Assembly (NCBI GenBank): GCA_046704965.1
Contig: JBJKQX010000417.1
Coordinates: 1 to 32,993, forward strand
Origin: Candidatus Binataceae bacterium
GTDB lineage: Bacteria > Desulfobacterota > Binatia > Binatales > Binataceae
Length of the DNA: 32,993 nt
Reading direction: 5' to 3'
Shown here: piece by piece, positions 1,757 through 20,507 of the stretch
How the letters are laid out: each line of letters begins with the position of its first letter
Position numbering within the stretch: the first letter of the stretch is position 1
Program-made: the position numbers and the translations under genes
Notes under the pieces: model-generated
Seen by the model: only the letters and a program-made list of their open reading frames with translations
Told to the model about the DNA's origin: nothing
Databases searched by the model: none

Positions 1757-2986
1757 TCAGGCAATGGGGACGGTTTTGAGGTGTATTTCGATTGCGTCGA
1801 TGATGTGTTTGGTGAGGGGCAGGTTCTTCTTCTCGCGCCGCCAGTGCTCGTAAAATGCGTCGACCGTTTCGCGCGCGGTGTCGAGAACGAGCTTCTCGGG
1901 CAACAAGGCCTTGGCGGCAAGATGCGATAGCTCGTCTTTGGAGAACTCAGAGAAACGCTTCGCGCGACTGAAATTCAGGGCCGCGTTCCGGTCCGGAATA
2001 TAGGCGATCGTCGATACAAAATCATAGGCTGGCGCCAGTACAGCCTTGCGACGGTCGGGATAGATCAGCGACCAATTCTTGATGTGCATGTCGGCATTGC
2101 CGATCAGCGTGTTGAAGGTCAACCGACGGATAAATTCGGCGATATCCCCTTCGTCGCTTTCCGCCGCGATCACATTTGCGATGTTTCGGTAGCTCGCCTT
2201 CTTGTACTTCTCGTCTGGATAGATACCGAAGACTTGCGCAAAATCCTCCATATGCACGGCACTGCCATCGCTGAGACGGTCAAAGCGTTCAATCGCGAGC
2301 GCCTGTCCTCGGAAATGATCAATCCCTCGCGGGAGATTCTTGATCGCCCGAACATCGACCAGATGCAGCGGCGGAATATCCATGCCGATCAGCCGGGCGA
2401 GAGTCATCATCGAGAATTCATTTTCCGGCACGCCGTCGAATTCACGTGAAGGAAGCTTGACGATCCAGGAGCCGCCGACGCCTCTGGCAGGGATCGTTAG
2501 CCCGCCGCTGGCTTCGTTGACGGCAGAGAATTTGAGCTGGACGCCGGCAAGCGAGAAGCGCAGCGCATTGTCGCGCCGATCATCGTCATGATGATGATCG
2601 TCATCGACATCATCATCAGCGCCCGGAGGCCAGGCTTCACCATCAGCGGGCAGGACGGTAATGGCTCCCGGCAGGTCCCTACCAAGCAGCCAGAGGAGAA
2701 AGAACTCGCGCTCGGGATTTATACCGCCCTGGTCGGCGAGATAGGTGCGCATGTGCCCTTCGGGCAGGAGATTCGAAAAAAACGGCAGCAGCTTTGTCTG
2801 CGTCGGCCTGAATTCCGTAATCAGCGCGCCAAGCCGGTCTTTGAACCCCAGTCCGAGGGTGGGACGGTTTACATCCGCGATATAAGCCTCATTGAATGAA
2901 AACAGTATGCGGTCCCCGGCAACGCGCGTCAGCGTGCCGATGGGTTGGCCGTACAGCAAGACATTGAGGACGGACACATCAGCCAT
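1757..2986 (-). CDS. hipA: type II toxin HipA-family Ser/Thr kinase
   Basis: P-loop-like FSLAGVQLKFS, catalytic-loop GNADMHIKNWS (D-x-H-x-K-N) and Mg-binding APAYDFVST. The ATG at 2986 is preceded by AGGAGG (2993-2998, 6-nt spacer) and overlaps the hipB stop as ATGGCTGA. The track ORF extends to 3001. Confidence 0.9.
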   Translation of the reverse strand: MADVSVLNVLLYGQPIGTLTRVAGDRILFSFNEAYIADVNRPTLGLGFKDRLGALITEFRPTQTKLLPFFSNLLPEGHMRTYLADQGGINPEREFFLLWLLGRDLPGAITVLPADGEAWPPGADDDVDDDHHHDDDRRDNALRFSLAGVQLKFSAVNEASGGLTIPARGVGGSWIVKLPSREFDGVPENEFSMMTLARLIGMDIPPLHLVDVRAIKNLPRGIDHFRGQALAIERFDRLSDGSAVHMEDFAQVFGIYPDEKYKKASYRNIANVIAAESDEGDIAEFIRRLTFNTLIGNADMHIKNWSLIYPDRRKAVLAPAYDFVSTIAYIPDRNAALNFSRAKRFSEFSKDELSHLAAKALLPEKLVLDTARETVDAFYEHWRREKKNLPLTKHIIDAIEIHLKTVPIA

Positions 2987-3587
2987 CGCCGTCCTCCTCA
3001 TCGAGGCTATAGGCGGGCCGCACGGTTTCTATTTTCGGCGGGCGCGCAGAAGCGTGCGCAAGCGCGTTGCGCATGTCTCGAACCTGAGAGGCGACTTGAC
3101 GGATAGCCTCCTGGCTTTGTTTGTCGCCGTGCAGGTTCTGCAGCGTCATTCGGGCTTCACGAATGGATTTCAGGATCGTGTCATCAATTCGAAAATTCTG
3201 AAGGTCCTTTAGCTGACGCTGAAGTTGGGCAAGCTCGGTGGTCACGTGTCGCCTCTTGGCAAGTTCCGCAACAGCCTGCTGTATGCGACCTAACTCTTTA
3301 ACCGCCCGGCTCGCCGCAGCGGTGTCCGACGACGCGCCGGCTGCACTGCCGCGGACAATCGACTGAACCGCCGACACGGTCTTGCGCGGCACGAGTTCCA
3401 GTTCCAGATCGAGGACGCGCGCAAGCGCGATCAGGCTCGAAAGCCGGAGATCGACCGCGCCGCTCTCGATCTTCGAGATGTGGCTTTGCGGCACCCCCGC
3501 CTTCTTGCTCAGCGCGCGCTGGCTCAGCCCTTTGCCTTCACGGGCCTCCTTCAGCAGCCCGGCGATCTGTTCACTCACGTAGCTCAC
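2979..3587 (-). CDS. hipB: XRE-family HTH antitoxin (HipB-like) with a long C-terminal helical extension
   Basis: The N-terminal LSQRALSKKAGVPQSHISKIESGAVDLRLSSLIALARVL is a classic XRE/Cro HTH. The gene lies immediately upstream of hipA and overlaps it. GTG start at 3587 with no obvious SD, so the start is uncertain by a few codons. Confidence 0.85.
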   Translation of the reverse strand: MSYVSEQIAGLLKEAREGKGLSQRALSKKAGVPQSHISKIESGAVDLRLSSLIALARVLDLELELVPRKTVSAVQSIVRGSAAGASSDTAAASRAVKELGRIQQAVAELAKRRHVTTELAQLQRQLKDLQNFRIDDTILKSIREARMTLQNLHGDKQSQEAIRQVASQVRDMRNALAHASARPPKIETVRPAYSLDEEDGDG

Positions 3588-3640
3588 TTGATATGTTTTT
3601 CCATATCAATCTTGGAAATTGATATGCTTATATATATCGA
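3588..3640. promoter_or_regulatory. two tandem palindromic operator candidates for HipB
   Basis: Operator 1 is TTGATATG(3588-3595)-N6-CATATCAA(3602-3609), a perfect 8-bp inverted repeat. Operator 2 is TTGATATG(3619-3626)-N6-TATATCGA(3633-3640), with 6 of 8 positions matching. Their centres are about 31 bp apart, and operator 2 overlaps the predicted -10. Confidence 0.6.
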
Positions 3641-3659
3641 CGTTATTGGCCAGCGTCAA
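3631..3659 (-). promoter_or_regulatory. sigma70-like promoter of hipBA
   Basis: On the minus strand the region reads TTGACG (plus coordinates 3654-3659), a 17-nt spacer, then TATATA (3631-3636). Confidence 0.55.
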
Positions 3660-3674
3660 ATATTGATTTATTAT
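3646..3674 (+). promoter_or_regulatory. candidate divergent plus-strand promoter
   Basis: TTGGCC (3646-3651), a 17-nt spacer, then TATTAT (3669-3674). It sits back-to-back with the hipBA promoter. No protein gene follows, only the hairpin/U-tract elements at 3927-4171. Confidence 0.3.
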
Positions 3675-3926
3675 TATATATAGTTCTCACGAAACGATCT
3701 ATTAAACTAGATCATATTTCCCGCCCCCTCTAAAGTCCCGACGCAATGCCTTGCCGGGCGTTGGTGACCCGCTGCGAACCGACACTCGGCCGGAAACCTT
3801 CCTTTGAGCCTTCATAAAACAGTCACTGACCGTCACTAATCTGGCTCGCAGGGAGAACCGGCGCCTCGGGGCACGCGACCTCCCCTCGTCTTGTGATTCC
3901 CCCAGAACCAGCTGCGTCACGATCTC

Positions 3927-3953
3927 GCCCGGCTCAGGCCGGGCTTTTCTTTT
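3927..3953 (+). terminator. Rho-independent terminator-like hairpin 1
   Basis: Stem GCCCGGC (3927-3933), loop TCAG, stem GCCGGGC (3938-3944), followed by TTTTCTTTT. Confidence 0.55.
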
Positions 3954-4017
3954 GTCTGCAGGAACGCAGCACCCCTGGCCGTGGATGGCATTAAACGTCG
4001 CTCTTCCGGAGCGCTCT

Positions 4018-4051
4018 GCCCCGCCCTAGCCGGCGGGGCTTTTCTGCTTTT
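4018..4051 (+). terminator. Rho-independent terminator-like hairpin 2
   Basis: Stem GCCCCGCC (4018-4025), loop CTAGCC, stem GGCGGGGC (4032-4039), followed by TTTTCTGCTTTT. Confidence 0.55.
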
Positions 4052-4144
4052 GTCCCGTACCGTCAGGGGGGATATGCTTCGTGCCACAACAGGGCGGGGA
4101 CGGGACGACGGAGCACCGAACCTTGCCGGAGGTCCACTGCTATA

Positions 4145-4171
4145 GCCCCGGACAGGGAACGGGGCTTTTTT
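4145..4171 (+). terminator. Rho-independent terminator-like hairpin 3
   Basis: Stem GCCCCG (4145-4150), 9-nt loop, stem CGGGGC (4160-4165), followed by TTTTTT. Confidence 0.55.
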
Positions 4172-4671
4172 CTAGATGGTGTGTCGCCGCCACGCCGTGC
4201 TGGGCAATGACATCGGAACGGAGAAAACGTCCGCTTCTCTGATCCCCGCGATGATCGCGATGACCGCGACAGGGAGTAAGCCGGCCTTCGCGGCGCGGTT
4301 GGTTGAACGCCTCACCGCAGTTCGGGCGATGAGGCGGCCAATGTCCCGTAAGGCAGAAAGCGGCCGTTCGGGACCCGCAAGGGGCACGCGGCGCGGCAAG
4401 CGGTGCGAGCGCGACGCCGTGAATGAGATGTCCTACCCCATCGCAGATATTTAGCCGCCAGCGGCCAATATTGTTGCCAGATCCAAGAGTGGAAAAATTG
4501 CATTTGGGCTTTGGCGTTCGATCTCTACCGCGCCAATATCATTGACGGGAAAAACTCAACAAAAACAGCATGAAGCGCCGTGTGTGCCGAAGGATATAGT
4601 CTACTGCTGCCAATCGCGTGCAGATTATTTATGATCCTAATCCCGCAATTAGACATTGCAATGAGGCCGTT

Positions 4672-6315
4672 ATGGCGGAAGTTGCGCAAAAGTTTGTGAC
4701 CACCGCTCCGAGGGGCAATTCGGACGCCCAAGGTGTAGTGGCAGAACACTTCGCCAACGAGATCGTCTTCGCCGTCGTTGGCCACGTGGGTTCCGGAAAT
4801 ACAAAGGTCGCCGAGGAGCTGAGAGACATTCTCCTCAATCAAAAGATTGGCAATCAAGCATTTTCAGTTGCCATTATTAAGGCACGCAAAGTGATAGAAG
4901 AGAGGATGAAGCTACTCGGCACTCCGATTATTGCCGGCCAAGGCAAAACACTGGCCGACGTGATCAAGTATCAGGATGCTGGGGATAAGCTGCGCGAAAA
5001 AGATCATTCAGCAGTTGCGCTGGGGGCGGTTGCGCTCATCCGCAAAGAGCGGGCGAATTGGCAGGGCACCATTGTCGAGCAGGAGAAGCCCGTTGTGCCT
5101 GATGGAAAGCCCCGGGCCTTCATAATTGATTCGTTGCGTCACCCTGCCGAAGTTGGCCTGCTAAGGCGTATCTATGGTGATGGTTTCGTCCTCATTGGGG
5201 TGGTCTGCGAGCAGGAAGAGCGCAGAAAGCGCATATCGGAGAAATACGAGGACGCGGGCAATGCCGCCGCCGAGCGCTTCATGAGGCGTGACTCCAAGGC
5301 CCCTCAGAAGCATGGTCAACGTGTGTCTGACGCGTTTCATCTGTCTGATTTCTTCGTGGATAACACTGCGAAACGTATTTTGGAGGACGGTAGGGCAAAT
5401 AGTGAATGGGGAGTGACGGAGGACCTAGAGCGGCTCGTCCAGTTAGTGACGCACGCGGAAATCGCTCGGCCTACTACATCCGAAAGCGCCATGCATGTAG
5501 CAGCGGGGGCGGCAATGAGAAGTGCCTGCTTGTCGCGTCAGGTCGGCGCGGCCCTGGTCGATGCCGAGGGTAACGTAATTGCCACCGGCACCAATGAAGT
5601 GCCGAAGGCAGGCGGCGGTGTATATGGCCAAGGCTTCGAAGAGTTGCACGACCAAAGATGCGCTTACCGCAACAAGTTTTGCAGCAACACGCAAGAGCAG
5701 AAAAAAATCGCCGAGGAAGTTCTACTGGAAATCCTTGGCGAGGATGACGCCCGCATGAAGGACAGGAGTCAACGCGCCGATTTGATGGACATTCTTGCAG
5801 ATGGGCGAATCGGCGATCTCCTTGAGTTTAGCCGCGCGGTACATGCTGAAATGGATGCGCTGCTAAGCGCTGGACGAAAAGGGGCAAGCACCATCGGCAC
5901 CAGGCTTTTCGTCACCACTTTTCCGTGCCACTACTGTGCGCGACACATTGTCTCCGCTGGTGTAGATGAGGTACAATTTATTGAGCCCTATCCGAAGAGC
6001 CAGGCGCTAACTCTTCACAAGGATTCCATCCAATTCGAAAAGGGAACCACGGCGTGGGTCGCGCCGAGCGATCACACCTATTGGCACAACACGAAAGACC
6101 AGGAGAGGACGGGCGCGCCTCGAGTACTGTTCCGGCCATTCACAGGTGTAGCACCTAGGATGTATAGACGGGCCTTTCAGAAAGATCGCGAGCTCAAAAA
6201 CGCGAAGTCTGGCGAAATTTCGATACAAGAACCGGATTGGGGAACGCCTTACGACCTCTCGAAGAAAAGCTATGCAGAGCTAGAAGCTGCCCTGACTAAG
6301 GATATTCCGGCGTGA
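4672..6315 (+). CDS. P-loop nucleotide-kinase-like domain fused to a zinc cytidine/deoxycytidylate deaminase domain (DcdV/AvcD-type anti-phage dCTP deaminase architecture)
   Basis: The N-domain has VVGHVGSGNTKV (Walker-A-like, with Asn where the Lys is expected) and IIDSLRHPAEVGLLRRIYGDGFVLIGVVCEQEERRKRI. The C-domain has the HAEMDAL...(24 aa)...PCHYC zinc-deaminase signature. The ATG at 4672 follows GAGG (4663-4666); the track ORF begins at GTG 4618. Confidence 0.85.
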   Translation: MAEVAQKFVTTAPRGNSDAQGVVAEHFANEIVFAVVGHVGSGNTKVAEELRDILLNQKIGNQAFSVAIIKARKVIEERMKLLGTPIIAGQGKTLADVIKYQDAGDKLREKDHSAVALGAVALIRKERANWQGTIVEQEKPVVPDGKPRAFIIDSLRHPAEVGLLRRIYGDGFVLIGVVCEQEERRKRISEKYEDAGNAAAERFMRRDSKAPQKHGQRVSDAFHLSDFFVDNTAKRILEDGRANSEWGVTEDLERLVQLVTHAEIARPTTSESAMHVAAGAAMRSACLSRQVGAALVDAEGNVIATGTNEVPKAGGGVYGQGFEELHDQRCAYRNKFCSNTQEQKKIAEEVLLEILGEDDARMKDRSQRADLMDILADGRIGDLLEFSRAVHAEMDALLSAGRKGASTIGTRLFVTTFPCHYCARHIVSAGVDEVQFIEPYPKSQALTLHKDSIQFEKGTTAWVAPSDHTYWHNTKDQERTGAPRVLFRPFTGVAPRMYRRAFQKDRELKNAKSGEISIQEPDWGTPYDLSKKSYAELEAALTKDIPA

Positions 6316-9300
6316 CAGGTTCACAACGTCCCTATCTCCGCGTTGTCAGCTCGGCGCATCAAAAGACACAAGACGCTCCACAGCAGACGGCTGCGATGGC
6401 AGCATCCGGCACTCTTCGGCAGCCGATGCTATTTTCCGATGCTTCCCTTCACACGCTCGCATTCATCAAGGCGGGTGAGTTGGACGCAGATAAGTTCTCT
6501 AGCCTAATAAGAGAGGCGAAGCCGCTGGTTGTCTTTGATCTCCGGTCCATTCCTAGCTTCGCTCGGAGAACCCTTAGTCGAAAGGCCGTCTTCTCTCTTT
6601 TCCAGGAGAACGGAGTCGAATACTTCGACGTCGCTGGTACGCTCGGTGTATCTGGCGGACGCGATGGGCTCCTAAACCCCGCGCTGTTGATCAATGCGTT
6701 GCAGATTAGCGTGTTGAGACACGCCAGGGGTCTCATTGGTCCGGTCTTCTTTTTCGTTAACGATGATCTCTTTTACGACGACTACTTCTCGGCTGTTGCG
6801 GAGCAACTACCACACCAAGATGGTCGGGGCTGGGAGATCGCTTGCTGGCCAAACGAGCAGGCGTCAAAGAGTGTCGTTGAGCGTGACCTTGTTTTCATTA
6901 GCCATGCTAATCCTGAGGACAACGAGGTCGCGCGCTGGTTGGTATCCCGACTGGCGGCGAGGGGCTATCAAGTGTGGTCTGACATTACGCGCCTCCTTGG
7001 TGGTGAATTTTTCTGGGACACCATTGAAGACGCAATCCGAAAAAAGGCAGCTAAGGTCATTGTGATCCTATCCCGGCGTGGTCAGCTCAAGCCAGGCCTG
7101 TTGGATGAGGTGAATATCGCTATCTCAACGGAACGCAGTGAGGGGTTGAATAGATTCGTGCTTCCAGTTCGGGTAGACGATCTGCCTTTCGCGGACATCC
7201 GTGCAAACCTTGCCCGAAAGAACGTAATTGATGGCCGCGCCAACCTAGCGGAGGCGCTGTCTCGAATCTTAGCAATTTTGAGAGAGGATAAAGTTCCTCG
7301 CGCAGGCGATGATTCTGGCACACCGTTGCCGGATATTCGTCTGACTACGCCTCAAGCTGTGGACACAAGTGAATGGAATGTCCTATTCGAGAATAAAATT
7401 GAGGTTCTGGCGTGGCCGCGTGTCATCAGGAAATTTCGATCCACTCGCACGACGTTTCCGTTCGCGACGCATTCCGCTACCGACGGAGTAGTCACTTTTG
7501 AGGACTGGGATGTCATCGGGGCTGCACTTGGCGCTTCCGTGGCTAAAGCAGGTGAAGTCACCTTTGAACTAGGCGAAAATTGGGGCGCGCTTGATCTCGT
7601 CTTTGCTAACCGCGCAGAGGCTCGACGGGCAGCCTCAAATCTCCTGAGACAGGCATGGGACAGCATGTGCCAGAATCGTGGGTTCTCGCGCTTTGTGCTG
7701 GCAAACAACTTGTCCTGTTGGTTTTTGCCGAACGGATTTCAGAACGGAAATCGAGTTGGTTACTTGGACCCGAAAGGCGTCCAGCGGCAGAAAATCCTCG
7801 TCGGACGCAGCTCGCGTCGAAGAGTCTTTTGGCATTTTGCAATTGAGGCACGTGCTAGCTCGATTGATAGTTCCATACGCGTCGTTCCCCATGTCCTATT
7901 CTCTGAAGACGGCGAGACACCAATCCCCTCTCATGATCGTCAACACGCACTTCGGCGGGGATTCTGCAGGAACTGGTGGAATGCTCGGTGGCGTGATCTT
8001 CTCGCGGCCACGTTAAGCTACATGTCAGAGGGTCGTGACACTCTAGGTCTTCCTGTTTCACAGCGAGCCATTATCGAAGTTTCCGCTCGCCTAAAGGCTC
8101 ATGTTACCGAACCATCTGGTGAGCAACCGGGAACTGACATTTCCCGCAACGTTATTCGGTTCGAGGAACCCAAGGTGGTGGTTGGTTATGGGCAGACTGA
8201 TGATTATCCCAAAGAAGGACTGCTCCTGTTTGGGCCTGTACCGTTCGAAAGGAATCCGAAGAACATCAAAGCTGGTGTCATCGGCACAACGGAAGGAATT
8301 GCGCTGTACCGCGCATGGAGCACTCAATTCAATAGTTTCCAAGCCGATCCTGGCGCGAGTAGAAACTCTGTGCCATTTCCAGGCTTTGAGGCAGTCTTCG
8401 GGGCAAAATGGGATGTGAATCCGATCCACTCAATCGCTTTGTCGCGTACCGATTTAATCAACTCGATCCTTCTAGAGGATCGTCATCAAGCAATCTTCAA
8501 GTCCACCGGAATGTACGTTGACCAGATCACAAAGGCTATTCGCGAAGATGACGTTGATGTTGACATATGGTTTGTCGTCATTCCTGATGAGGTATTTGTT
8601 TACGGTCGCCCAGTGTCGCGCGTTCCTAGCGCTATTGCAATCGCGACACCAGGGGCGATGGGCCGTAATGTCGCGCGGCGGTTCTTAAATTCATCTCCCT
8701 CGCTGTTTCCGGAGGACAATGCGGAAGCGGAGATCTATGATTATCATTTGGATTTTCATCATCAATTAAAAGCTCGCTTATTGGATGTTCAAGCCGTCAC
8801 ACAAATCTTGCGAGAGTCTTCGCTCGTTACCATGACTGGTGCATCTGAACCAGAGCTGCTTGTTAGCGCCGAGCTGTGCTCTAAGCATGAAGAGTTAGAC
8901 GATATAGAGGAAATCGGTGACAAAGTAGCCAAACCTAGTCCAGACGAGGTGGAGGTCTTTGAGGAAGATTTATATGAGTATAATGCAGAAACGCGAAACG
9001 TTCGTGTTGAGTCGGGTCCAAATGCTTTTGGCACACATTTCGTCGTAAATCGGCGCATGCAGGATAAGGCAAGTGTTGCGTGGAACCTCTCTACAACCAC
9101 CTTCTTTAAGGCAGGCGGCCGCCCGTGGAGGGTAGCTAACGCGCGACAGGGGGTTTGCTATATTGGATTAATATTCAAGCGTGAGCCGGGCCTGCGATCG
9201 CGACAGTCCTGCTGCGGTGCCCAGATGTTTCTCCAGGATAGTGACGGTATAGTATTCAAGGGAGCTATGGGTCCCTGGTACTCTCCAGACACCGGCCAAT

Positions 9301-9851
9301 TTCATATCTCTCGCGAGGAAGCCAATAGGCTAATCGGCGTCGTTCTGAAGAGCTATGCTGAGGAACATCGTAAGCCGCCGCGAGAGCTATTTATCCACGG
9401 CCGCACTCGCTTCAACAGCGACGAGTGGGCTGGCTTCTGCGATGCAATCGACCCTATGAATACCCAACTCACCGCAGTCCGTATTACACGCACAAACGAG
9501 TTTAAGCTGTTTTCTGGTGGTGAGAAGGCAGTGCGCCGGGGTACGGCGATCAGGCTGAGCTCGCGAATCGGTCTACTTTGGACTTCAGGCTATGTGGAAC
9601 GTCTCGGGACCTATCCTGGGCGCGAAACGCCTAATCCGTTGCGTATTGAGATCGTAAACGAGACCGAGCGAACGACCAACATCGATGTCGTTATGAATGA
9701 CATCATTATGCTCACAAAGATGAACTTCAATTCGTGCGTATACGGAGATGGCATTCCCGTTACTATGCGATTTGCTGATGCAATTGGAGACGTTTTGGTG
9801 ACTGCGAAGGACAAAAAGGTACCACCTCTGCCTTTTAGATATTATATCTAG
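6312..9851 (+). CDS. single-chain short prokaryotic Argonaute fusion: unknown N-domain - TIR - APAZ-like - MID - catalytically degenerate PIWI (SPARTA-like)
   Basis: TIR at about aa 191-325: LVFISHANPEDNEVARWLVSRLAARGYQVWSD...FWDTIEDAIRKKAAKVIVILS...LLDEV. The PIWI shows typical blocks: GGRPWRV, CYIGLIFKRE, CCGAQMFL, ELFIHGRTRF, LTAVRITRTNEFKLF, GTAIRL...LLWTSG, PNPLRIEI and IIMLTKMNFNSCVYGDGIPVTMRFAD. The GTG start at 6312 overlaps the upstream stop (GTGA), with AAGGA at 6298-6302. Alternative ATG starts lie at 6396 and 6426. Confidence 0.85.
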   Translation: MTGSQRPYLRVVSSAHQKTQDAPQQTAAMAASGTLRQPMLFSDASLHTLAFIKAGELDADKFSSLIREAKPLVVFDLRSIPSFARRTLSRKAVFSLFQENGVEYFDVAGTLGVSGGRDGLLNPALLINALQISVLRHARGLIGPVFFFVNDDLFYDDYFSAVAEQLPHQDGRGWEIACWPNEQASKSVVERDLVFISHANPEDNEVARWLVSRLAARGYQVWSDITRLLGGEFFWDTIEDAIRKKAAKVIVILSRRGQLKPGLLDEVNIAISTERSEGLNRFVLPVRVDDLPFADIRANLARKNVIDGRANLAEALSRILAILREDKVPRAGDDSGTPLPDIRLTTPQAVDTSEWNVLFENKIEVLAWPRVIRKFRSTRTTFPFATHSATDGVVTFEDWDVIGAALGASVAKAGEVTFELGENWGALDLVFANRAEARRAASNLLRQAWDSMCQNRGFSRFVLANNLSCWFLPNGFQNGNRVGYLDPKGVQRQKILVGRSSRRRVFWHFAIEARASSIDSSIRVVPHVLFSEDGETPIPSHDRQHALRRGFCRNWWNARWRDLLAATLSYMSEGRDTLGLPVSQRAIIEVSARLKAHVTEPSGEQPGTDISRNVIRFEEPKVVVGYGQTDDYPKEGLLLFGPVPFERNPKNIKAGVIGTTEGIALYRAWSTQFNSFQADPGASRNSVPFPGFEAVFGAKWDVNPIHSIALSRTDLINSILLEDRHQAIFKSTGMYVDQITKAIREDDVDVDIWFVVIPDEVFVYGRPVSRVPSAIAIATPGAMGRNVARRFLNSSPSLFPEDNAEAEIYDYHLDFHHQLKARLLDVQAVTQILRESSLVTMTGASEPELLVSAELCSKHEELDDIEEIGDKVAKPSPDEVEVFEEDLYEYNAETRNVRVESGPNAFGTHFVVNRRMQDKASVAWNLSTTTFFKAGGRPWRVANARQGVCYIGLIFKREPGLRSRQSCCGAQMFLQDSDGIVFKGAMGPWYSPDTGQFHISREEANRLIGVVLKSYAEEHRKPPRELFIHGRTRFNSDEWAGFCDAIDPMNTQLTAVRITRTNEFKLFSGGEKAVRRGTAIRLSSRIGLLWTSGYVERLGTYPGRETPNPLRIEIVNETERTTNIDVVMNDIIMLTKMNFNSCVYGDGIPVTMRFADAIGDVLVTAKDKKVPPLPFRYYI

Positions 9852-10206: not shown

Positions 10207-10968
10207 CTATCTCATGAAGGAAACTAACACCGAAGCCAGCTTTAGCGCATCATAGATGATCGGCTCAAGGACCGGTTTGGCTCCATGCACATCGCTCATG
10301 TCCGACCTTAAAATCTGCATCACCATTGCCGCTTGGTTCAGTGCTCCCCGAAGATTGTGGAAAAGCATTGAGGCCCGCTCCGGCTTCCAGCCCAGACCAA
10401 CGAGCTCACGTTCCAATGCGGTAAGCCGACCAACAGCCTCGATGGCAAGCTTGGTTTTCTGCTGAAATGATTCGGCATCACTGGTATTGGCTACTGCTGC
10501 CGCGGCTGTCTCCACGGAGCCACTTGCAGCCGCAAGTGCGCCATCCAGGTCTCCATTGACGAGCCGGTCGAGTGCCGTCGAGATTTGACCAGCGGCGGCT
10601 TCTGGCAAGAACCGCAATTCGCGCTCATCGAAAAGCCCAACGGGAATGAATTTGCCTTGAATAAATTGGAAGCCATGCTCAAGCAGGAGCGCTTTCACGC
10701 GTTCCGGCGCGTCCTCGGGGTAGGTCCGATCAAGGAGCCGTTCTGCCAAAATACGAACGGTTCGAATTTGATTGGTAAACTCAAATTTCTCGAATTGCGC
10801 GTCAACCGACTGCATTAGCGGCTGCCAGTGCTGCATCCCCGTAGAGGCGAATCCCGCAGTTCTTAAAACCTGAGCCGCTTGCGTGATGCCGAACTGGGCC
10901 TGAACTTCAGAGGTTAAAGCAGCAAAGAGACGGCGAACATCACCTTGAGTTAGCTGTTTTTCGCCCAT
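10207..10968 (-). CDS. Abi_C-like abortive infection family protein
   Basis: The C-terminal LFHNLRGALNQAAMVMQILRSDMSDVHGAKP resembles the Abi_C signature (R..x..HG). ATG at 10968 (MGEKQL); the track ORF extends to 11022. Confidence 0.55.
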   Translation of the reverse strand: MGEKQLTQGDVRRLFAALTSEVQAQFGITQAAQVLRTAGFASTGMQHWQPLMQSVDAQFEKFEFTNQIRTVRILAERLLDRTYPEDAPERVKALLLEHGFQFIQGKFIPVGLFDERELRFLPEAAAGQISTALDRLVNGDLDGALAAASGSVETAAAAVANTSDAESFQQKTKLAIEAVGRLTALERELVGLGWKPERASMLFHNLRGALNQAAMVMQILRSDMSDVHGAKPVLEPIIYDALKLASVLVSFMR

Positions 10969-11527
10969 CGACGATCCCGCCTGTGACAAACGCTTTCGAG
11001 CGCGACACACCCACGAATGCACCTAAGCTCCTGATTGGGTGAAATAATTCCGTATCAGCCGGCATCACGTTTCGCGCAAAACGAGACACCTTTAGTAATC
11101 TACGCTTTCCTTACGAATTCAACTAGTTGAGAAAGTTCTAAACGGGGTCAAGCTTCGGGGCGCGTTTACAAGCTCGACAAGCAGACCATTCCGAGCCGCC
11201 ACGGAGAGCCTCATTTTGGTCGGGATTGTGATGACGTCGAGCTCGTCCCTAGGCAAGACGCCACTATTATCCAGTTGAATGCTTCGCCGCAGCCAAGATA
11301 GAGGCCCCCTCATATGGGAAGTGATCCTTCGGCCGCAACCGTGGCGAGGAGGCTTTCGTCTTCACTATCCGTTACGTCGGCGGGCGGGCTCGCCGTCAGA
11401 GAGTCCTCGGTTTTTCGAACCCACGAGATCCGATCTCATCGGCCCAAACCGGACTATATCTCCTTTACTCTGCACCAAACCAATGGAATAGTCCCGTCTA
11501 TCCGCTACGGTGGAGAAAGGGTGGGTC

Positions 11528-11770
11528 ATGTCTGATCGCTGGATGTCCGTCGAGGAGATCGCCGGCTATCTGGGAGTGAGCAAAGACACGATCTACGGCT
11601 GGATAACCAAGAGGGACATGCCGGCCCACAAGGTCGGAAGGCTTTGGAAGTTCAAGTCGGACGAGGTCGATTCATGGGTGAGGGCCGGTAAAGCATCCGA
11701 CGAGGGCGGTGAGCATGCGGTGAGTGATGCAAAAGGTCGAGAAAAGCGCGCCACGAAGGGGAAGCAATGA
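11528..11770 (+). CDS. excisionase/MerR-type helix-turn-helix (HTH_17-like) DNA-binding protein
   Basis: WMSVEEIAGYLGVSKDTIYGWITKRDMPAHKVGRLWKFKSDEVDSWV is the typical excisionase-family HTH pattern. The ATG at 11528 follows GGAGAAAGG (11512-11520). The stop overlaps the dcm start (ATGA at 11767-11770). Confidence 0.75.
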   Translation: MSDRWMSVEEIAGYLGVSKDTIYGWITKRDMPAHKVGRLWKFKSDEVDSWVRAGKASDEGGEHAVSDAKGREKRATKGKQ

Positions 11771-12861
11771 GTAGAGTGGCGTGCATCGACTTGTTTTGTG
11801 GCGCGGGCGGTCTGACGCATGGCCTGATCCAAGCGGGCATCCCGGTCGTCGCAGGCATCGATGTCGATGCGGCTTGCCGCTACCCGTTCGAAATCAACAA
11901 CAGCTCGCGCTTCATCGCCAAAGACATCAAGAACGTAAAACCGGCGGACCTAAAGAAGCTCTATGGTGATGCCGAGATCCGGATTTTAGCCGGTTGCGCG
12001 CCCTGTCAGCCATTCTCGACCTATTCCCAACGCTACGACACCTTGACGAGTCCGCGCTGGCCCCTGCTGTACCAGTTCGCGCGCCTCATAAAGTCAGTCC
12101 GTCCGGACGTCGTGACCATGGAAAACGTGCCTCTGGTCGAAAAGCACGCGGTGTTCGACGACTTCGTCGCTACTCTGCGTCGGCTGGGTTACAACGTCTG
12201 GCAGGGCGTCGTCGATTGCACCCAATATGGCTTGCCGCAAACCAGGCGGCGGATGGTCATACTGGCGAGCCTGATCGGTCCGATTGAGCTGATCGCGCCG
12301 ACGCACGAAAAGCCTCGGACCGTCAAAGATGCGATCGGAAAGCTACCCGCCATCGAAGCCGGCAGCGCTCACAAAAGCGACGCATTCCATATGTCGTCCA
12401 GGCTTTCGGATCTCAACCTAGAGCGCATCCGCGCCTCCCGCCCCGGCGGGACGTGGCGCGACTGGCCCAAACGGCTGGTCGCAGAATGCCATCGCAAGGA
12501 AACCGGCCGCACCTATCCCGGCGTCTACGGGCGCATGACGTGGAACGACCCCGCTCCGACGATCACGACGCAGTTCTATGGTTTCGGCAACGGTCGGTTC
12601 GGTCATCCCGAACAGGATCGGGGTATCTCCTTGCGAGAGGGCGCCATCCTGCAAGGGTTCCCTAAGGACTATGCCTTCGTGCCGGAGGGCAGTCCCACCC
12701 ATTTCAAGGTTCTCGGCCGAATGATCGGCAATGCTGTGCCCGTCGTCCTCGGCGAGGCGATCGGACAGAGCATTTCGGCTCACCTCGGCATCAAGGCCGA
12801 TCGGGAGGGCCAGAAGCAGGGAGGCATCGCGGATGTCGCGCGTAAGCCCCTCATCGCATGA
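11767..12861 (+). CDS. dcm: DNA (cytosine-5)-methyltransferase
   Basis: C5-MTase motifs are present in order: I IDLFCGAGGLTHG, IV GCAPCQPFS, VI TMENVP, VIII QTRRRMVILAS, X IGNAVPV. Confidence 0.92.
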   Translation: MSRVACIDLFCGAGGLTHGLIQAGIPVVAGIDVDAACRYPFEINNSSRFIAKDIKNVKPADLKKLYGDAEIRILAGCAPCQPFSTYSQRYDTLTSPRWPLLYQFARLIKSVRPDVVTMENVPLVEKHAVFDDFVATLRRLGYNVWQGVVDCTQYGLPQTRRRMVILASLIGPIELIAPTHEKPRTVKDAIGKLPAIEAGSAHKSDAFHMSSRLSDLNLERIRASRPGGTWRDWPKRLVAECHRKETGRTYPGVYGRMTWNDPAPTITTQFYGFGNGRFGHPEQDRGISLREGAILQGFPKDYAFVPEGSPTHFKVLGRMIGNAVPVVLGEAIGQSISAHLGIKADREGQKQGGIADVARKPLIA

Positions 12862-13258
12862 AGCGAGCCTCCGAATGGCTCGAGTGCGGCAGAAGGGCAC
12901 CGACGCCGAACTTTCCTTACGTAAGGCGCTGCACGCCAGAGGGCTGCGCTATCGCTTGCACGTCCCGCTACTGACGAAGCCGCGTCGAGTCGCAGACATC
13001 GTTTTTTCGAGCGCCCGGGTCGCCATCTTCGTCGATGGTTGCTTCTGGCACGGTTGCCCGCAACACGCCTCCTGGCCGAAGAGCAACGCGCAATTCTGGC
13101 GCGACAAGATCGAAACCAACCGGGCTCGCGACGCGGACACCGATCAACGCCTCCGGGCTTCGGGTTGGCGGGTCGTCCGTGTTTGGTCTCACGAAAGCGC
13201 CGGTGATGCGGCCGAACGCATCGAAGACCTCGTTCGTGCCGGGGAGAGTGCGCAGTGA
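12833..13258 (+). CDS. vsr: very short patch repair endonuclease
   Basis: SLRMARVRQKGTDAEL...ADIVFSSARVAIFVDGCFWHGCP...FWRDKIETNRARD...GWRVVRVWSHE matches the Vsr pattern. The ATG at 12833 overlaps the dcm 3' end by 29 nt; the track ORF starts at 12731. Confidence 0.88.
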   Translation: MSRVSPSSHEASLRMARVRQKGTDAELSLRKALHARGLRYRLHVPLLTKPRRVADIVFSSARVAIFVDGCFWHGCPQHASWPKSNAQFWRDKIETNRARDADTDQRLRASGWRVVRVWSHESAGDAAERIEDLVRAGESAQ

Positions 13259-16200
13259 TCGTCAGGGGGGCTGGCAGCGCGGCCGCACAGATAGCGCATC
13301 ACACCATCCCCGAGCCCGGCCAGTTGGTGGAAGCTCGCCGGCGTCAATGGATTGTTTCTGAAGTGGACGACGGCTCGGTCGCCCCTGGTCTGCCCAAACG
13401 CCACCTCATTCGGTTGGCTTCGATCGACGAGGATGCCCTCGGCGAGGAAATCGAGGTTTTGTGGGAATTGGAACCCGGCGCTCATGTCATCGAGCGCGCC
13501 GGCCTGCCGCGTATCACGGGTTTGGACGATCCAGACACGCTGCAAGCGTTTCTCGACGCCGTCCAATGGGGAGCGGCCACCAACGCAGACAGAGCGTACT
13601 TGCAAGCTCCCTTCCGTAGTGGCGTCAGCATCGAGGATTTCCAGCTCGACCCGCTAGTGCGCGCGATCGACATGGCTCGCACGAGCCTGCTCATCGCCGA
13701 CGACGTCGGTCTCGGCAAGACGATCGAAGCCGGTCTCGTGGTCCAGGAGATGCTCCTCCGCCACCGTGCCCGTACAGCGCTGGTGTTGTGCCCAGCGTCG
13801 CTGCAAGAAAAGTGGCGCACGGAGATGCAAGAAAAATTCGGCCTTGATTTTCGGATCGTGGATACCGAGTTCGTCAAGCATCTGCGACGCGAGCGAGGGC
13901 TGCACGCCAACCCGTGGACGTCCTTCCCGCTCCTGATCACCTCAATGGATTGGGCGAAGCAGGGTGAAGGCCTGCGCCTGTTTCGTGATGCATTGCCGCC
14001 CTCGGTCACACATCCCCGCAAATTCGATCTCTTGGTGATCGACGAGGCCCACAACGTCGCGCCAACGGTCGGACACTATGCCGTCGAGAGCCTCAGGACG
14101 CGGCTGGTCCGCCTTCTCGCACCCCATTTCCAGCACAAGCTGTTCCTGACCGCCACGCCGCACGATGGCTACACCGAATCGTTCACCGCTCTGCTCGAAC
14201 TCCTCGACGATCAACGGTTCGCCAGAAACGTCCTGCCGAGCGAGCCCCAGCGCGCCCGGGTCATGGTGCGGCGGCTGAAGAGCGACCTCGTCGACGCGAA
14301 CGGCAATCGGCTCTATCCGGTACGGCGCCTCGAAGCCCTCGGCGTCAACTATGCCGAGGACGAGCGAGACATCCGTCATCTTCTCGGGGACTACATATCC
14401 AGCCGGGAGCGGGGGGAAAAAGGCGCACGAGCCGTCGACCGCTTCGTCCATCAATTGCTGCGCAAGCGCCTGTCGTCGTCACCCGCGGCGTTCGCGACCA
14501 CGCTGGAGCGGCATGTCGCGACCATCGAAGGGCGCACCGCGGCCGACCACGGCCAACGAAAGTTGGATGAGCGCATCCTCCGCCGGGCCATCTCGAAGGC
14601 GGAGGAAGACTACGCCGACGATGCCCAGCGCGAGATGGCGGAAGACGAGGCGATTGGCGAAGCCAGCAAGCACGTCCGCCCGCCTGACGAGCGAGAAAGG
14701 CTGATGCTCCAGCGTTTGCGATCCTGGGCTCAGCAAGCGTCACGCAAGGAGGACTCCAAGGCTCGCGCCATCCTGGAGTGGCTCGCCAAGCATCTCCAGG
14801 TCGATGGCCAGTGGACAGACGAGCGCGTCATACTCTTCACCGAATACCGGACGACACAGCAGTGGATGCACCAGATCCTTGCTGCCCACGGCTTCGGTGG
14901 CGACCGGCTGGCGTTGATCTATGGCGGGATGGATCACGACGAACGCGAAACCGTGAAGGCCGCGTTCCAGGCCAGCCCCAAGGAATCGCCAGTCAGAATC
15001 CTCCTGGCGACCGATGCCGCTTCGGAAGGCATCGACCTCCAAAACCACTGCCATCTGATGATCCACTTGGAGATCCCTTACAATCCCAACGTGATGGAGC
15101 AGCGGAACGGCCGCATCGACCGGCACGGTCAGCGCTCCGGCGAGGTGGTCATTTGGCACCCGGTCGACGACGAGGGAGACCACGGCGAGGACATTCTGCG
15201 TGCCCTGCGCAAGCTCGATGCCATGCGGGCCGACATGGGCAGCGTCAATCCGGTCATCGCCCCTCAGTTGCCGGACCTGATCGAGGGGCGCCGGCGCGAC
15301 CTGGATACCCGGCTCGCCGAAGCCCGCATGGAAAAGTCTCGCCGCTTCGTCCGAGCGGAGCGCGATCTCCGAGAACGCATCGCGAAGCTGCATGAACGTC
15401 TCGCCGAGACCAAACGAGAGCAAAATCTCGCGCCCGACCATATCGAAAGATCGGTGAGGACGGCTCTGCGCCTATCGGACAAACCGGACCTGGAGCCCGT
15501 TTCCCTTCCGGGGGCTCTCGATGGATCGGTCTTCAGGATGCCGGCGCTGTCGGGTTCATGGTCGCGATGTCTCGAAGGTCTCGAGCATCCCTATACGAAG
15601 AAGGTTCGACCGATCACCTTCGATCACGACGTGGCGAAGGGGCGCGACGACGTCGTCCTGGCGCATCTCAATCACCGCCTCGTTCAGATGAGTCTGCGCC
15701 TGCTCCGCGCCGAGATCTGGGCGCGCGACGACGTAAAGAAGATCCATCGCGTCACCGCCCGGTCGCTTCCCGACGGTCGCTTGGAAGCTCCGACCATCGT
15801 CGTCGTTTCTCGCTTGGTGATCACGGGCGGAAGCCACCATCGCCTGCACGAGGAACTCACCGAGGCCGGCGGCTATCTGCGCGACGCGGGATTCCGCCGC
15901 GAGGAGCGCGTCACAGAGTTGCGTCGGTGGCTACAGGAATCCAAACCAGCGGCGCTGCCGGACACGACCTTCGCGGCGCTGCGCACCCGCTTCGACAAGC
16001 AGCGCGACTCCGTCCTGGCTGCGGTCGAGGCGCGTTCCAAGGATCGCCTGCGCTTCCTGTCCAACTCGATCGACGCCCGCCGGGAAAAGGAGAGCGACGA
16101 CATCCGCCAGGTGCTAGACGATCTCGACAAGGCTCTACGGGCCGAACTCGTCGCCGACCGTGAGCCGCAACAGCTCTCGCTCTTCTCCGAAGACGAGCGC

Positions 16201-16377
16201 ACACAGCTGCGACGCGATCACGCCGCTCTGGAAGCACGCCTCGCCCGCATTCCGCTGGAGCGGGAGCAAGAGGTGCGCGCCATCGAGAACAGATACTCCA
16301 ATGTCCGGGATCACACCTTTCCCGTAGCCGTCGTCCTGCTCGTGCCCGCCTCGCTGTCGACAGAGCGGATAACATGA
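13255..16377 (+). CDS. drmD: SNF2-family helicase, DISARM class 1 DrmD
   Basis: DDVGLGKTIEAG (motif I), LLVIDEAHNV (II), LFLTATPHDG (III), LLATDAASEGIDLQ (V) and EQRNGRIDRHGQ (VI). The GTG start at 13255 overlaps the vsr stop (GTGA), with GGGGAGAG 6 nt upstream. Context: sits with drmMI/drmA/drmB/drmC. Confidence 0.85.
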   Translation: MIVRGAGSAAAQIAHHTIPEPGQLVEARRRQWIVSEVDDGSVAPGLPKRHLIRLASIDEDALGEEIEVLWELEPGAHVIERAGLPRITGLDDPDTLQAFLDAVQWGAATNADRAYLQAPFRSGVSIEDFQLDPLVRAIDMARTSLLIADDVGLGKTIEAGLVVQEMLLRHRARTALVLCPASLQEKWRTEMQEKFGLDFRIVDTEFVKHLRRERGLHANPWTSFPLLITSMDWAKQGEGLRLFRDALPPSVTHPRKFDLLVIDEAHNVAPTVGHYAVESLRTRLVRLLAPHFQHKLFLTATPHDGYTESFTALLELLDDQRFARNVLPSEPQRARVMVRRLKSDLVDANGNRLYPVRRLEALGVNYAEDERDIRHLLGDYISSRERGEKGARAVDRFVHQLLRKRLSSSPAAFATTLERHVATIEGRTAADHGQRKLDERILRRAISKAEEDYADDAQREMAEDEAIGEASKHVRPPDERERLMLQRLRSWAQQASRKEDSKARAILEWLAKHLQVDGQWTDERVILFTEYRTTQQWMHQILAAHGFGGDRLALIYGGMDHDERETVKAAFQASPKESPVRILLATDAASEGIDLQNHCHLMIHLEIPYNPNVMEQRNGRIDRHGQRSGEVVIWHPVDDEGDHGEDILRALRKLDAMRADMGSVNPVIAPQLPDLIEGRRRDLDTRLAEARMEKSRRFVRAERDLRERIAKLHERLAETKREQNLAPDHIERSVRTALRLSDKPDLEPVSLPGALDGSVFRMPALSGSWSRCLEGLEHPYTKKVRPITFDHDVAKGRDDVVLAHLNHRLVQMSLRLLRAEIWARDDVKKIHRVTARSLPDGRLEAPTIVVVSRLVITGGSHHRLHEELTEAGGYLRDAGFRREERVTELRRWLQESKPAALPDTTFAALRTRFDKQRDSVLAAVEARSKDRLRFLSNSIDARREKESDDIRQVLDDLDKALRAELVADREPQQLSLFSEDERTQLRRDHAALEARLARIPLEREQEVRAIENRYSNVRDHTFPVAVVLLVPASLSTERIT

Positions 16378-19784: not shown

Positions 19785-19817
19785 AGCGCGCAGACCCGCC
19801 CACTTGAGCATATTCTC

Positions 19818-20507
19818 GTGGCGGGGCGTGTCGGAAAGTATTTCAATCCGTCAGTAGTACAAAACGACGTCATTTTTCACGAGAAATGTGTCGTTTTCGC
19901 CGTGACGGAGGCATTTGCCTACGCGGCAATCTTCAATTCATCCCCGGTCGATGCGTGGGTTTGGAAACAGTCTTCCCGGATGAAGCTTGATCTGAATTTC
20001 TCGCCGTCGGACGCGGTCGAGACTTTTCCCTTTTTGGAAGCCTCCGACGTCATTCGCTTCGACCAGCTGGGTCGTGAGTACCTGCAATCGCGACGAGAGA
20101 TAATGACTGATCCGGCCAACCAGATCGGTCTCACGAAGCTCTACAACCGTTTCCACGACGCCGCTGACGTTGAAGCGCGCATCGTGCGCCTTCGGGAGAT
20201 GCACCGCGAGATCGACGCCGCCGTCATGCGTGCCTACGGGTGGGACGATCTCGACCTCGGGCATGGCTATCATGAGCAACCGAACCTCGCGGAGAACGAC
20301 CGCGTTCGCTTCACGATCTCCGATGTTGCGCGTGCGGAGGTGTTGCGTCGATTTACCGAGTTGAACCGACGGCGGTACCAGGACGAGGTCGAAGCGGGAC
20401 TGCACAAGTCAGCCAAGAAAACAGCATCGAGGAAGGCGCAGGTCAACCAAGACACCGGCGGTTTCTTCGATGCCGATACTATTGAGACGGAGAGCGTCGA
20501 TGACTGA
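19818..20507 (+). CDS. drmMI: C-terminal portion of DrmMI, separated from the main ORF by one in-frame stop (same reading frame)
   Basis: 16374 and 19818 are in the same frame. Only one stop (TGA 19782-19784) lies between ...YYFEQHPED and SAQTRPLEHILVAGRVGKYFNPSVV... The sequence has no independent SD. It resembles the usual C-terminal region of large type IIG/PglX-like methyltransferases. Confidence 0.7.
   Translation: MAGRVGKYFNPSVVQNDVIFHEKCVVFAVTEAFAYAAIFNSSPVDAWVWKQSSRMKLDLNFSPSDAVETFPFLEASDVIRFDQLGREYLQSRREIMTDPANQIGLTKLYNRFHDAADVEARIVRLREMHREIDAAVMRAYGWDDLDLGHGYHEQPNLAENDRVRFTISDVARAEVLRRFTELNRRRYQDEVEAGLHKSAKKTASRKAQVNQDTGGFFDADTIETESVDD

Follow-up and report, generated by a model that had tools for sequence, protein, structure and literature searches.

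Introduction

Two groups of described bacterial defense systems come closest to the locus analyzed here, which lies on a contig of a Candidatus Binataceae bacterium (GenBank assembly GCA_046704965.1, contig JBJKQX010000417.1) and couples ORF A (ORF, open reading frame), a gene for a predicted dCTP deaminase, to ORF B, a gene for a fusion protein containing a prokaryotic Argonaute (pAgo). The first group is SPARTA, the combination of a short pAgo with a TIR-APAZ protein, in which, according to three reports, guide RNA-directed binding of target DNA activates the TIR NAD(P)ase via oligomerization (PMC9097488, PMC10899771, PMC10355822). Koopal 2022 described the APAZ protein as the sole protein specifically associated with short pAgos, listed Mrr as the sole extra N-terminal domain of TIR-APAZ proteins and found the DEDX tetrad to be absent from all short pAgos. 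Ryazansky et al. 2018 made no mention of a deaminase and remarked of one TIR-APAZ protein that it “is short pAgo.” The second group comprises the AvcD/DcdV deaminases. The small RNA AvcI binds and directly inhibits AvcD of Vibrio cholerae until transcription shuts off, and AvcD deaminates both dCTP and dCMP (PMC10511110), whereas the dCTP deaminase of Escherichia coli requires both its kinase-like and its deaminase domain for defense (10.1101/2021.04.26.441389). In these papers, the enzyme appears either as a single gene or as a toxin controlled by a small RNA (10.1101/2021.04.26.441389, PMC10511110).

Here, we analyze the window, that is, the whole stretch of 32,993 nucleotides (nt) at positions 1 to 32,993 of the contig, and compare ORF A and ORF B with their homologs elsewhere. 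Judging from sequence comparisons, a conserved module consisting of the deaminase, an N-terminal domain of ORF B (hereafter Ndom) and SPARTA almost certainly exists, and Ndom is a fused copy of the partner protein that accompanies the deaminase throughout its subfamily. The preliminary description of the locus stated that no deaminase was known to have been described as a conserved pAgo partner; we likewise found no such description, nor one of any other feature of this arrangement, in the searchable literature, which omits much subscription literature, and in full texts covering Argonaute or SPARTA together with deaminases, reviews mention the two separately.

Results

A predicted dCTP deaminase gene coupled to a single-chain SPARTA gene

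The operon and its recognizable parts are listed below (positions in the window; aa, amino acids).

4607..4635, plus strand: promoter-like site CTGCCA-17 nt-TATGAT, 5′ of ORF A (consensus scan only, weak evidence)
4672..6315, plus strand: ORF A, predicted AvcD/DcdV-family anti-phage dCTP deaminase, 547 aa (PADLOC, NCBIfam, Pfam)
4780..4803, plus strand: GHVGSGNT, a P-loop-like sequence motif of the ORF A kinase-like domain
5842..5937, plus strand: catalytic/zinc motifs of the deaminase, HAE at 5842-5850 and PCHYC at 5923-5937
6298..6315, plus strand: coupling junction, with AAGGA at 6298-6302, GTG (ORF B start) at 6312-6314 and TGA (ORF A stop) at 6313-6315
6312..9851, plus strand: ORF B, predicted Ndom-TIR-APAZ-MID-PIWI single polypeptide, 1179 aa
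6312..6866, plus strand: Ndom, ORF B aa 1-185 (homology to stand-alone deaminase partners)
6882..7271, plus strand: TIR domain, ORF B aa ~191-320, with putative catalytic E266 at nt 7107-7109
7272..8126, plus strand: APAZ region, ORF B aa ~321-605 (PADLOC, PDB chain alignments)
8145..9851, plus strand: short pAgo part, MID-PIWI aa 612-1179 plus stop (PADLOC, PDB)
8829..9059, plus strand: acidic, predicted-disordered insertion between MID and PIWI, aa 840-916

ORF A is a predicted anti-phage dCTP deaminase of the AvcD/DcdV family. It matches the PADLOC dCTPase model (517 bits, E = 1.6e-155) and, with 426.3 bits over model positions 1-437, surpasses the cut-off of 400 for the NCBIfam equivalog NF041025, “anti-phage dCTP deaminase.” The protein consists of an N-terminal P-loop kinase-like domain, in which Pfam AAA_18 is matched weakly (E = 0.056), and a C-terminal zinc deaminase domain (dCMP_cyt_deam_1, E = 1.2e-16), in which HAE, the beginning of HAEMDAL at nt 5842, and PCHYC correspond in alignment to the active site of the dCMP deaminase 1vq2. 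Both catalytic motifs and the G-H-x-G-S-G of the P-loop are invariant in the alignment of the deaminase family. The P-loop had initially been regarded as degenerate; the same variant, GHVGSG[T/N][S/T] without the Walker lysine, is in fact the norm in the 120 closest deaminase homologs and not specific to ORF A.

The GTG start of ORF B overlaps the TGA stop of ORF A and is preceded by AAGGA 9 nt upstream. We consider this start to be real because 37 full-length ORF B homologs begin at the same position and retain M1, L9, and R10. For ORF A, ATG 4672 is the likelier start than GTG 4618, which would yield a 565-aa product, because the public gene call is 547 aa long, GAGG is located 5 nt upstream of the ATG, and the GTG falls within the 4607-4635 promoter-like site, in the spacer separating its two hexamers.

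ORF B is a predicted single-chain SPARTA, that is, TIR-APAZ plus short pAgo, with an extra N-terminal domain. Pfam TIR_2 covers aa 194-318 (E = 2e-18), the APAZ-type PADLOC model Aga_TIR-PNTD1-PNTD2 covers aa 190-604 (E = 1.4e-97), and PADLOC pAgo_I covers aa 612-1179 (E = 4.2e-178). Consistently, aa 191-591 match SPARTA TIR-APAZ chains in PDB over nearly their full length (E about 1e-40), and aa 613-1179 align with residues 3-507 of 507-aa SPARTA pAgo chains (8fex_B and others; E = 3.7e-118). The TIR domain contains LLDEV at aa 263-267, with E266 invariant across the 37 homologs. In a tree of PIWI domains, the PIWI of ORF B nests inside the SPARTA pAgos, and it is expected from this clade membership to lack the DEDX tetrad. 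The pAgo alignments with PDB chains are split in two by the ~75-residue acidic insertion at aa 840-916, for which the AlphaFold model is disordered (pLDDT, the per-residue confidence score, <50 for aa 846-916); this insertion is absent from the solved SPARTA pAgos and from most homologs, and is specific to close relatives of the window. The two proteins were also examined for the components of Thoeris, a ThsB-type TIR and a ThsA-type effector with a signal-binding SLOG/Macro domain: the ThsB model gave a weak match (E = 0.0049), and neither ORF A nor ORF B contains a SLOG, Macro, or SIR2 domain.

Both genes differ in composition from their surroundings. The G+C content is 0.549 for ORF A and 0.521 for ORF B compared to 0.592 for the whole window, and at third codon positions it is 0.60 and 0.53, respectively, compared to 0.73-0.77 in the downstream DISARM-like genes. 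The preliminary description had reported this AT-richer composition as well as the extents of the two ORFs, the positions of their motifs and the stop/start overlap with its upstream AAGGA, and all of these were borne out. It had left the start of ORF A open between 4672 and 4618, of which the latter turned out to lie within the promoter-like site. For ORF B, the TIR, APAZ-like, MID, and PIWI assignments were upheld by the Pfam, PADLOC, and PDB alignments, but the separate domain at aa 1-190 had been overlooked.

Conservation of the deaminase-SPARTA linkage

To place the operon in a broader context, one genome per prokaryotic species was scanned by alignment of ORF B homologs, yielding 79 SPARTA-type loci, in which homologs of ORF A were sought by tblastn. 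In 14 of the 79 loci, a full-length deaminase, 52-70% identical to ORF A, ends directly before the gene of the pAgo system, and these are exactly the loci in which the ORF B match reaches its first ~40 residues. At the 65 ordinary SPARTA loci, where the match begins at residue ~164-194, no deaminase is found within 10 kb (14/14 versus 0/65 for the association of Ndom with the deaminase; Fisher p = 8e-16). The linked loci comprise five single-chain fusions like ORF B and nine in which TIR-APAZ and pAgo are separate genes. Each of the 15 junctions inspected is tight, with the deaminase stop codon either overlapping the start of the following gene or lying no more than 3 nt from it. The flanking genes are different in every locus, none being common between the linked loci, and because no other gene is shared, the cassette moves as a unit. 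The preliminary description had made its proposal of a linked system depend on whether the synteny extends beyond this genome and had suggested homology searches with a statistical test of adjacency; conserved synteny outside the Binataceae genome is what these searches revealed.

Further linked loci include a fused one (L080), two split ones (L084 and L085) and one on a conjugative plasmid of Rhizobium gallicum (L088), and another 38 pairs of a deaminase and an ORF B-type protein, some of them on contigs labeled Verrucomicrobiaceae and Pirellulales, were placed on shared contigs by a heuristic, the coincidence of their “longest contig” lengths. The four parts, deaminase, Ndom, TIR-APAZ, and pAgo, co-evolve: their pairwise-identity matrices are strongly correlated (Spearman 0.69-0.85, Mantel p <= 0.0005), with minimum identities over the same set of 52% for the deaminase, 22% for Ndom, 32% for TIR-APAZ, and 45% for pAgo.

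In the PIWI-domain tree (81 sequences; all trees in this study are neighbor-joining trees without bootstrap), 18 deaminase-linked pAgos form one clade nested in ordinary SPARTA, within which the fully fused type forms a sub-clade. Given this single clade, the linkage arose once and was then kept through deep divergence and horizontal movement. In none of the 18 linked loci analyzed has Ndom become separated again from TIR-APAZ. On the deaminase tree, the backbone of which is short, the SPARTA-linked and solo states are separated by “3 changes,” a count that is indicative only.

Some of the linked loci show individual features. At L080, the closest relative on a large contig, where the deaminase is 70% identical to ORF A, a separate 328-aa TIR_2 protein is encoded ~5 kb upstream of the module (2680-3666). 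At L081 (9602-11629), an intact deaminase gene is located next to a frameshifted, truncated Ndom-TIR-APAZ-pAgo gene, and on the R. gallicum plasmid (L088, 5944-7561), the deaminase is split into two coding sequences.

The N-terminal domain is a member of a family of deaminase partners

Deaminase homologs without a nearby pAgo still have a tightly coupled downstream gene, which encodes a protein of ~180 aa homologous to ORF B aa 8-185 (BLASTP E = 3e-47 and 1e-24). By this homology, ORF B aa 1-185 is a fused copy of the deaminase subfamily's own partner protein. A phmmer search of 1.84 billion representative proteins (E <= 0.001) collected an Ndom family of 215 clusters at 50% identity, in which the domain is always N-terminal; this search replaced a word-index search with Ndom alone, which retrieved only four truncated TIR fragments. 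Among the best 150 of the 215 clusters, 109 are stand-alone proteins of 131-215 aa, ~24 are fusions to TIR-APAZ or to the full pAgo protein, and one is a different fusion. Ndom proteins of 216-450 aa were considered as possible new architectures and proved to be mostly contig-truncated Ndom-TIR fragments. Likewise, L081 was considered as a stand-alone partner close to the fused Ndom until tblastn uncovered the frameshifted, truncated fusion gene.

The association was further assessed in 80 deaminase-centered metagenomic loci, a sample seeded on the solo-type deaminase. Ndom is located directly downstream of the deaminase in all 80, as a stand-alone gene in 57 and fused to TIR-APAZ in 19 (17 of which have the pAgo visible), with two further copies cut by contig ends and two found in slightly longer ORFs. 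The spacing between the two genes is most often -8, -4, or -1 nt, within a range of -34 to +10 nt. Even distant stand-alone Ndoms, about 25-36% identical to the Ndom of ORF B (P0204, P0213, P0222, P0262, and P0292), all follow a deaminase, and a plasmid-borne deaminase 45.6% identical to ORF A is accompanied by a diverged Ndom copy (hhalign probability 96.6%). The preliminary description had assumed that proteins built like ORF A act as stand-alone defenses in the manner of AvcD, which does not hold for the subfamily of ORF A; rather, a large AvcD subfamily emerges as a two-protein system. Near classical AvcD genes on plasmids of E. coli, Klebsiella, Vibrio, Photobacterium, Pantoea, and Pararhizobium, Ndom was undetectable by tblastn, and the three classical AvcD loci inspected have no co-directional downstream partner. 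These classical plasmid copies are 31-36% identical to ORF A and are set apart by a long branch when the deaminases are placed on a tree.

The one different fusion is an 878-aa protein, Ndom-GNAT-PIN_3 (locus L094, 1519-4155), with ~400 aa in which no domain was recognized. Directly upstream, overlapping its gene by 8 nt, lies a deaminase gene whose product is 52% identical to ORF A. Together with the SPARTA fusion, this makes at least two independent fusions of Ndom with multidomain proteins and shows that the deaminase partner can be joined to different proteins of this kind.

The pair of adjacent, tightly spaced genes for an enzyme and a small protein has the layout of a type II toxin-antitoxin (TA) system, and the deaminase and Ndom may be related by a type II TA-like neutralization. 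An antitoxin-typical DNA-binding domain was not detected in Ndom in Pfam, PADLOC, and NCBIfam searches.

Sequence conservation and predicted fold of Ndom

Ndom represents an uncharacterized family, for which neither PADLOC nor NCBIfam has a model. An AlphaFold model based on a 60-sequence alignment predicts a disordered tail of ~40 residues followed by a compact beta-alpha-beta-alpha-beta-alpha-alpha-beta-alpha-beta domain (core aa ~45-180, core pLDDT >90). The tail carries a conserved motif, P-x-L-R-L-V, which reads PYLRVV at ORF B aa 7-12; its L9 and R10 are invariant in the Ndom fusions, and an LRLV-like motif is present in 81 of the 109 stand-alone Ndoms. In the core, there is little or no variation at D76, R78, R90, Y104, and D106 or in an RDA.LNP-type motif; for the five residues, this holds in fused and stand-alone members alike.

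Foldseek searches of the Ndom model against PDB and BFVD yielded at best E about 0.04 with TM (structural similarity score) <0.4, and the top matches, Rossmann-like folds of methyltransferases and phosphatases, were judged to be non-specific. A profile search against PDB sequences gave no match. Membership of the DUF488 family (PF04343) was considered and rejected: 8 of 60 Ndom members match weakly (best E = 0.0082), below the gathering threshold, and the Ndom of ORF B itself has no match. In one DUF488 paper, the domain is listed merely as a fusion partner of ParB-CTPase folds. In addition, the PADLOC candidate-system model PDC-M45B weakly matches 3 of 60 stand-alone Ndoms (best E = 4.5e-4), a hint that an Ndom-related small protein belongs to a predicted defense candidate.

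Comparison with described systems

With SPARTA (clade S2A; MapSPARTA and CrtSPARTA, PDB 8fex, 8ifk, and 8j8h), ORF B shares the TIR-APAZ and short pAgo parts, the TIR glutamate and the nesting of its PIWI. It differs in being one chain rather than a heterodimer, in the extra N-terminal domain of ~185 aa, in the ~75-aa insertion between MID and PIWI and in the obligatory, coupled upstream gene for a dCTP deaminase; relatives within the clade keep TIR-APAZ and pAgo as separate proteins. The picture of SPARTA as a two-protein heterodimer with APAZ as the sole partner therefore does not describe the ORF B clade, and a SPARTA clade with an obligatory third component contrasts with the combination of a pAgo and one APAZ effector depicted by Koopal 2022.

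ORF A has the two-domain layout of AvcD/DcdV, known from the type III TA system AvcID of V. cholerae and from the single-gene system of E. coli, with intact catalytic motifs. Unlike the enterobacterial and Vibrio plasmid copies, to which it is 31-36% identical, it falls into a separate clade whose members are always followed by Ndom. AvcID has a cis-encoded small RNA antitoxin, AvcI, next to avcD. No AvcI-like conserved element was detected upstream of ORF A-type deaminases: an Rfam search of the window for an AvcI-like RNA returned no family at the gathering threshold, and the 400 nt upstream of the deaminase at 21 loci contain no conserved sequence except in one near-identical pair, a comparison that a structure-only RNA could escape.

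Three other systems resemble the module in part. SPARSA-A (clade S1A) likewise combines effector, APAZ, and short pAgo in one chain (Koopal 2022), but its effector is SIR2 rather than TIR, its pAgo belongs to another clade, and no deaminase or Ndom has been described for it. The Mrr-TIR-APAZ subclade of SPARTA also has an extra N-terminal domain, in that case a second putative effector attached to the sensor (Koopal 2022). However, Mrr is a PD-(D/E)XK nuclease, whereas Ndom has no nuclease signature and would, unlike Mrr, recruit a separately encoded enzyme; the PADLOC REase-TIR-APAZ model aligns with ORF B from profile position 144 only, leaving its REase part unmatched. Finally, the SiAgo-Aga1-Aga2 system of Sulfolobus similarly adds a separately encoded effector to a pAgo/APAZ-type core, but there the effector is a membrane protein, the pAgo is from another clade, and there is no adaptor-domain fusion.

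Discussion

Functional coupling of pAgo sensing to both NAD+ hydrolysis and deamination of dC nucleotides, one sensor with two effectors, is on balance the reading that we favor. Comparative genomics shows a large subfamily in which an AvcD-type deaminase always has a translationally coupled downstream Ndom partner of ~175 aa. In one lineage, the Ndom gene became fused to the 5′ end of the SPARTA TIR-APAZ gene, and in the sub-lineage of the window, TIR-APAZ was subsequently joined to the short pAgo as well. The deaminase, Ndom, TIR-APAZ, and pAgo have since been co-inherited and have moved among unrelated genomic contexts. On the favored reading, Ndom would bind the deaminase and restrain or position it, as a protein counterpart of the AvcI small RNA. 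Guide RNA-directed binding of invader DNA by the pAgo would induce oligomerization and bring the TIR domains together, and, given the position of Ndom beside the TIR domain, activation of SPARTA would at the same time turn on the Ndom-tethered deaminase, either by release from inhibition or by activation through clustering. The outputs would be NAD(P)+ hydrolysis by the TIR domain and conversion of dCTP and dCMP to dUTP and dUMP by the deaminase. A more specific proposition, to which we give somewhat less than an even chance, is that Ndom serves as a portable adaptor connecting the dCTP deaminase, an effector acting on the dNTP pool, to various sensors, SPARTA here and a GNAT-PIN protein elsewhere; in this operon, RNA-guided recognition of foreign DNA by the Argonaute would then directly trigger the dCTP to dUTP conversion alongside NAD+ destruction.

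A single operon with one sensor and two effectors had been the first option of the preliminary description. The conserved operon agrees with it, the coupling itself being inferred from the genomic evidence, but the option was incomplete because the physical link, the deaminase partner fused as ORF B aa 1-185, had gone unseen. If the coupling holds, the system would deliver two independent metabolic blows from one guide-directed sensor, would be hard to escape for phages with NAD+-regeneration pathways and would define a new adaptor principle by which effectors are wired to sensors in bacterial immunity. On the portable-adaptor proposition, it would also be the first instance of nucleic acid guidance governing the deoxynucleotide pool and the first short-pAgo system in which a third effector, encoded by a gene of its own, is conserved. 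The ~3/4 of the deaminase subfamily with a solo partner would, in turn, constitute a new, protein-regulated class of AvcD.

Several observations weigh against coupling through Ndom. The linkage with SPARTA has a single origin, so that the argument is one of long retention rather than of convergence. The decaying copies at L081 and L088 indicate that the parts are not strictly interdependent for their maintenance. The contact between Ndom and the deaminase is putative, and the structure models are of single chains. The conserved D76, R78, R90, Y104, and D106 of Ndom could serve in ligand binding or catalysis rather than in contact with a protein, and the sub-threshold similarity to DUF488 has to be considered as well. 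Furthermore, because both halves work alone in other organisms, simple co-expression could suffice.

The best-surviving alternative, which we regard as rather unlikely although worth serious attention, is that the locus combines two parallel systems: following an accidental fusion in a defense island, they would be co-expressed and co-inherited, each with its own trigger (e.g., partner turnover for the deaminase and guide/target binding for TIR) and without cross-regulation. That the halves function independently elsewhere is evident from the 57 of 80 deaminase loci with only a solo partner and the 65 of 79 SPARTA loci without Ndom or deaminase; the single origin of the fusion and the density of the island, with unrelated systems side by side, would also fit. 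Yet the fusion has been kept while Ndom diverged to 22% identity, with no re-separation among 18 loci, and the cassette travels as a unit between unrelated flanks. The second, independent fusion of Ndom, to GNAT-PIN, in turn suggests the role of an adaptor.

Less probable still is that Ndom binds a small molecule or has an enzymatic activity, possibly as a relative of DUF488, rather than acting as a tether. Such a domain could sense or process the substrate or product of the deaminase (dCTP, dUTP, or dUMP) and, once fused to SPARTA, make the NADase respond to the state of the nucleotide pool, so that the deaminase would act upstream of SPARTA. The five conserved polar residues and the RDA.LNP-type motif in a compact alpha/beta fold are what a ligand site might look like, and DUF488 is the family matched, in 8 of 60 members. 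Nevertheless, these matches remain below the Pfam threshold, no structural neighbor with a known ligand site and no PDB profile match emerged, and the conserved N-terminal LRLV peptide, lying in a disordered tail, is more reminiscent of a docking motif.

TIR domains of other bacterial systems make signaling nucleotides. The second option of the preliminary description, a Thoeris-like relay in which a TIR-made nucleotide signal is bound by the kinase-like P-loop domain of the deaminase and switches on deamination, builds on this capacity, and the kinase-like domain of the E. coli dCTP deaminase is indeed needed for defense (10.1101/2021.04.26.441389). However, the P-loop variant is found throughout the subfamily, ~3/4 of which has no TIR partner, and a relay would not explain why Ndom and the deaminase always occur together. 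Besides, ThsB-type models match weakly (E = 0.005), and the TIR of SPARTA is, according to PMC9097488, an NAD(P)+ hydrolase yielding nicotinamide (NAM) and ADP-ribose or its phosphate (ADPR(P)). We therefore consider a relay of this kind very improbable.

Lastly, as the window is a defense island, with HipA/HipB, HTH-Dcm-Vsr (HTH, helix-turn-helix), and a DISARM-like cluster of helicase, methylase, DUF1998, and PLD genes, chance adjacency through crowding in one genome was the null hypothesis, and it is effectively refuted by the 14/14 versus 0/65 distribution, the dozens of additional loci, the conserved overlapping junctions and the non-conserved flanks.

Genomic neighborhood of the operon

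Upstream of the operon, on the minus strand (1757-3587), a gene for a HipA-like kinase toxin (414 aa) overlaps one for a HipB-like HTH antitoxin (202 aa) with a long C-terminal extension. The following ~1 kb (3588-4600, plus strand) is devoid of a convincing ORF and contains three successive GC-rich hairpins with T-runs, at 3927-3944, 4018-4039, and ~4146-4172. None of these hairpins matched an Rfam family; small RNAs are one possible interpretation, a stack of terminators at an island boundary another.

Downstream, a 271-aa ORF without a Pfam match (10207-11022, minus strand) is convergent with ORF B and is not conserved beside the module elsewhere. It is followed on the plus strand (11510-29061) by an HTH_17 gene, a Dcm C5-methylase, a Vsr endonuclease and a cluster similar to class 1 DISARM, which encodes an SNF2 helicase, an Eco57I/MmeI-type N6 methylase, a 229-aa ORF, a HATPase_c_3 protein, a large helicase, an MZB/DUF1998 protein and a PLD nuclease. 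To our knowledge, standard DISARM systems do not include a HATPase_c_3 gene. At the far end of the island, there are genes for a NOV_C (NO VEIN C-terminal) protein (29132-29965, plus strand) and for a protein with a weak HNH_5 match (31180-32166, minus strand).

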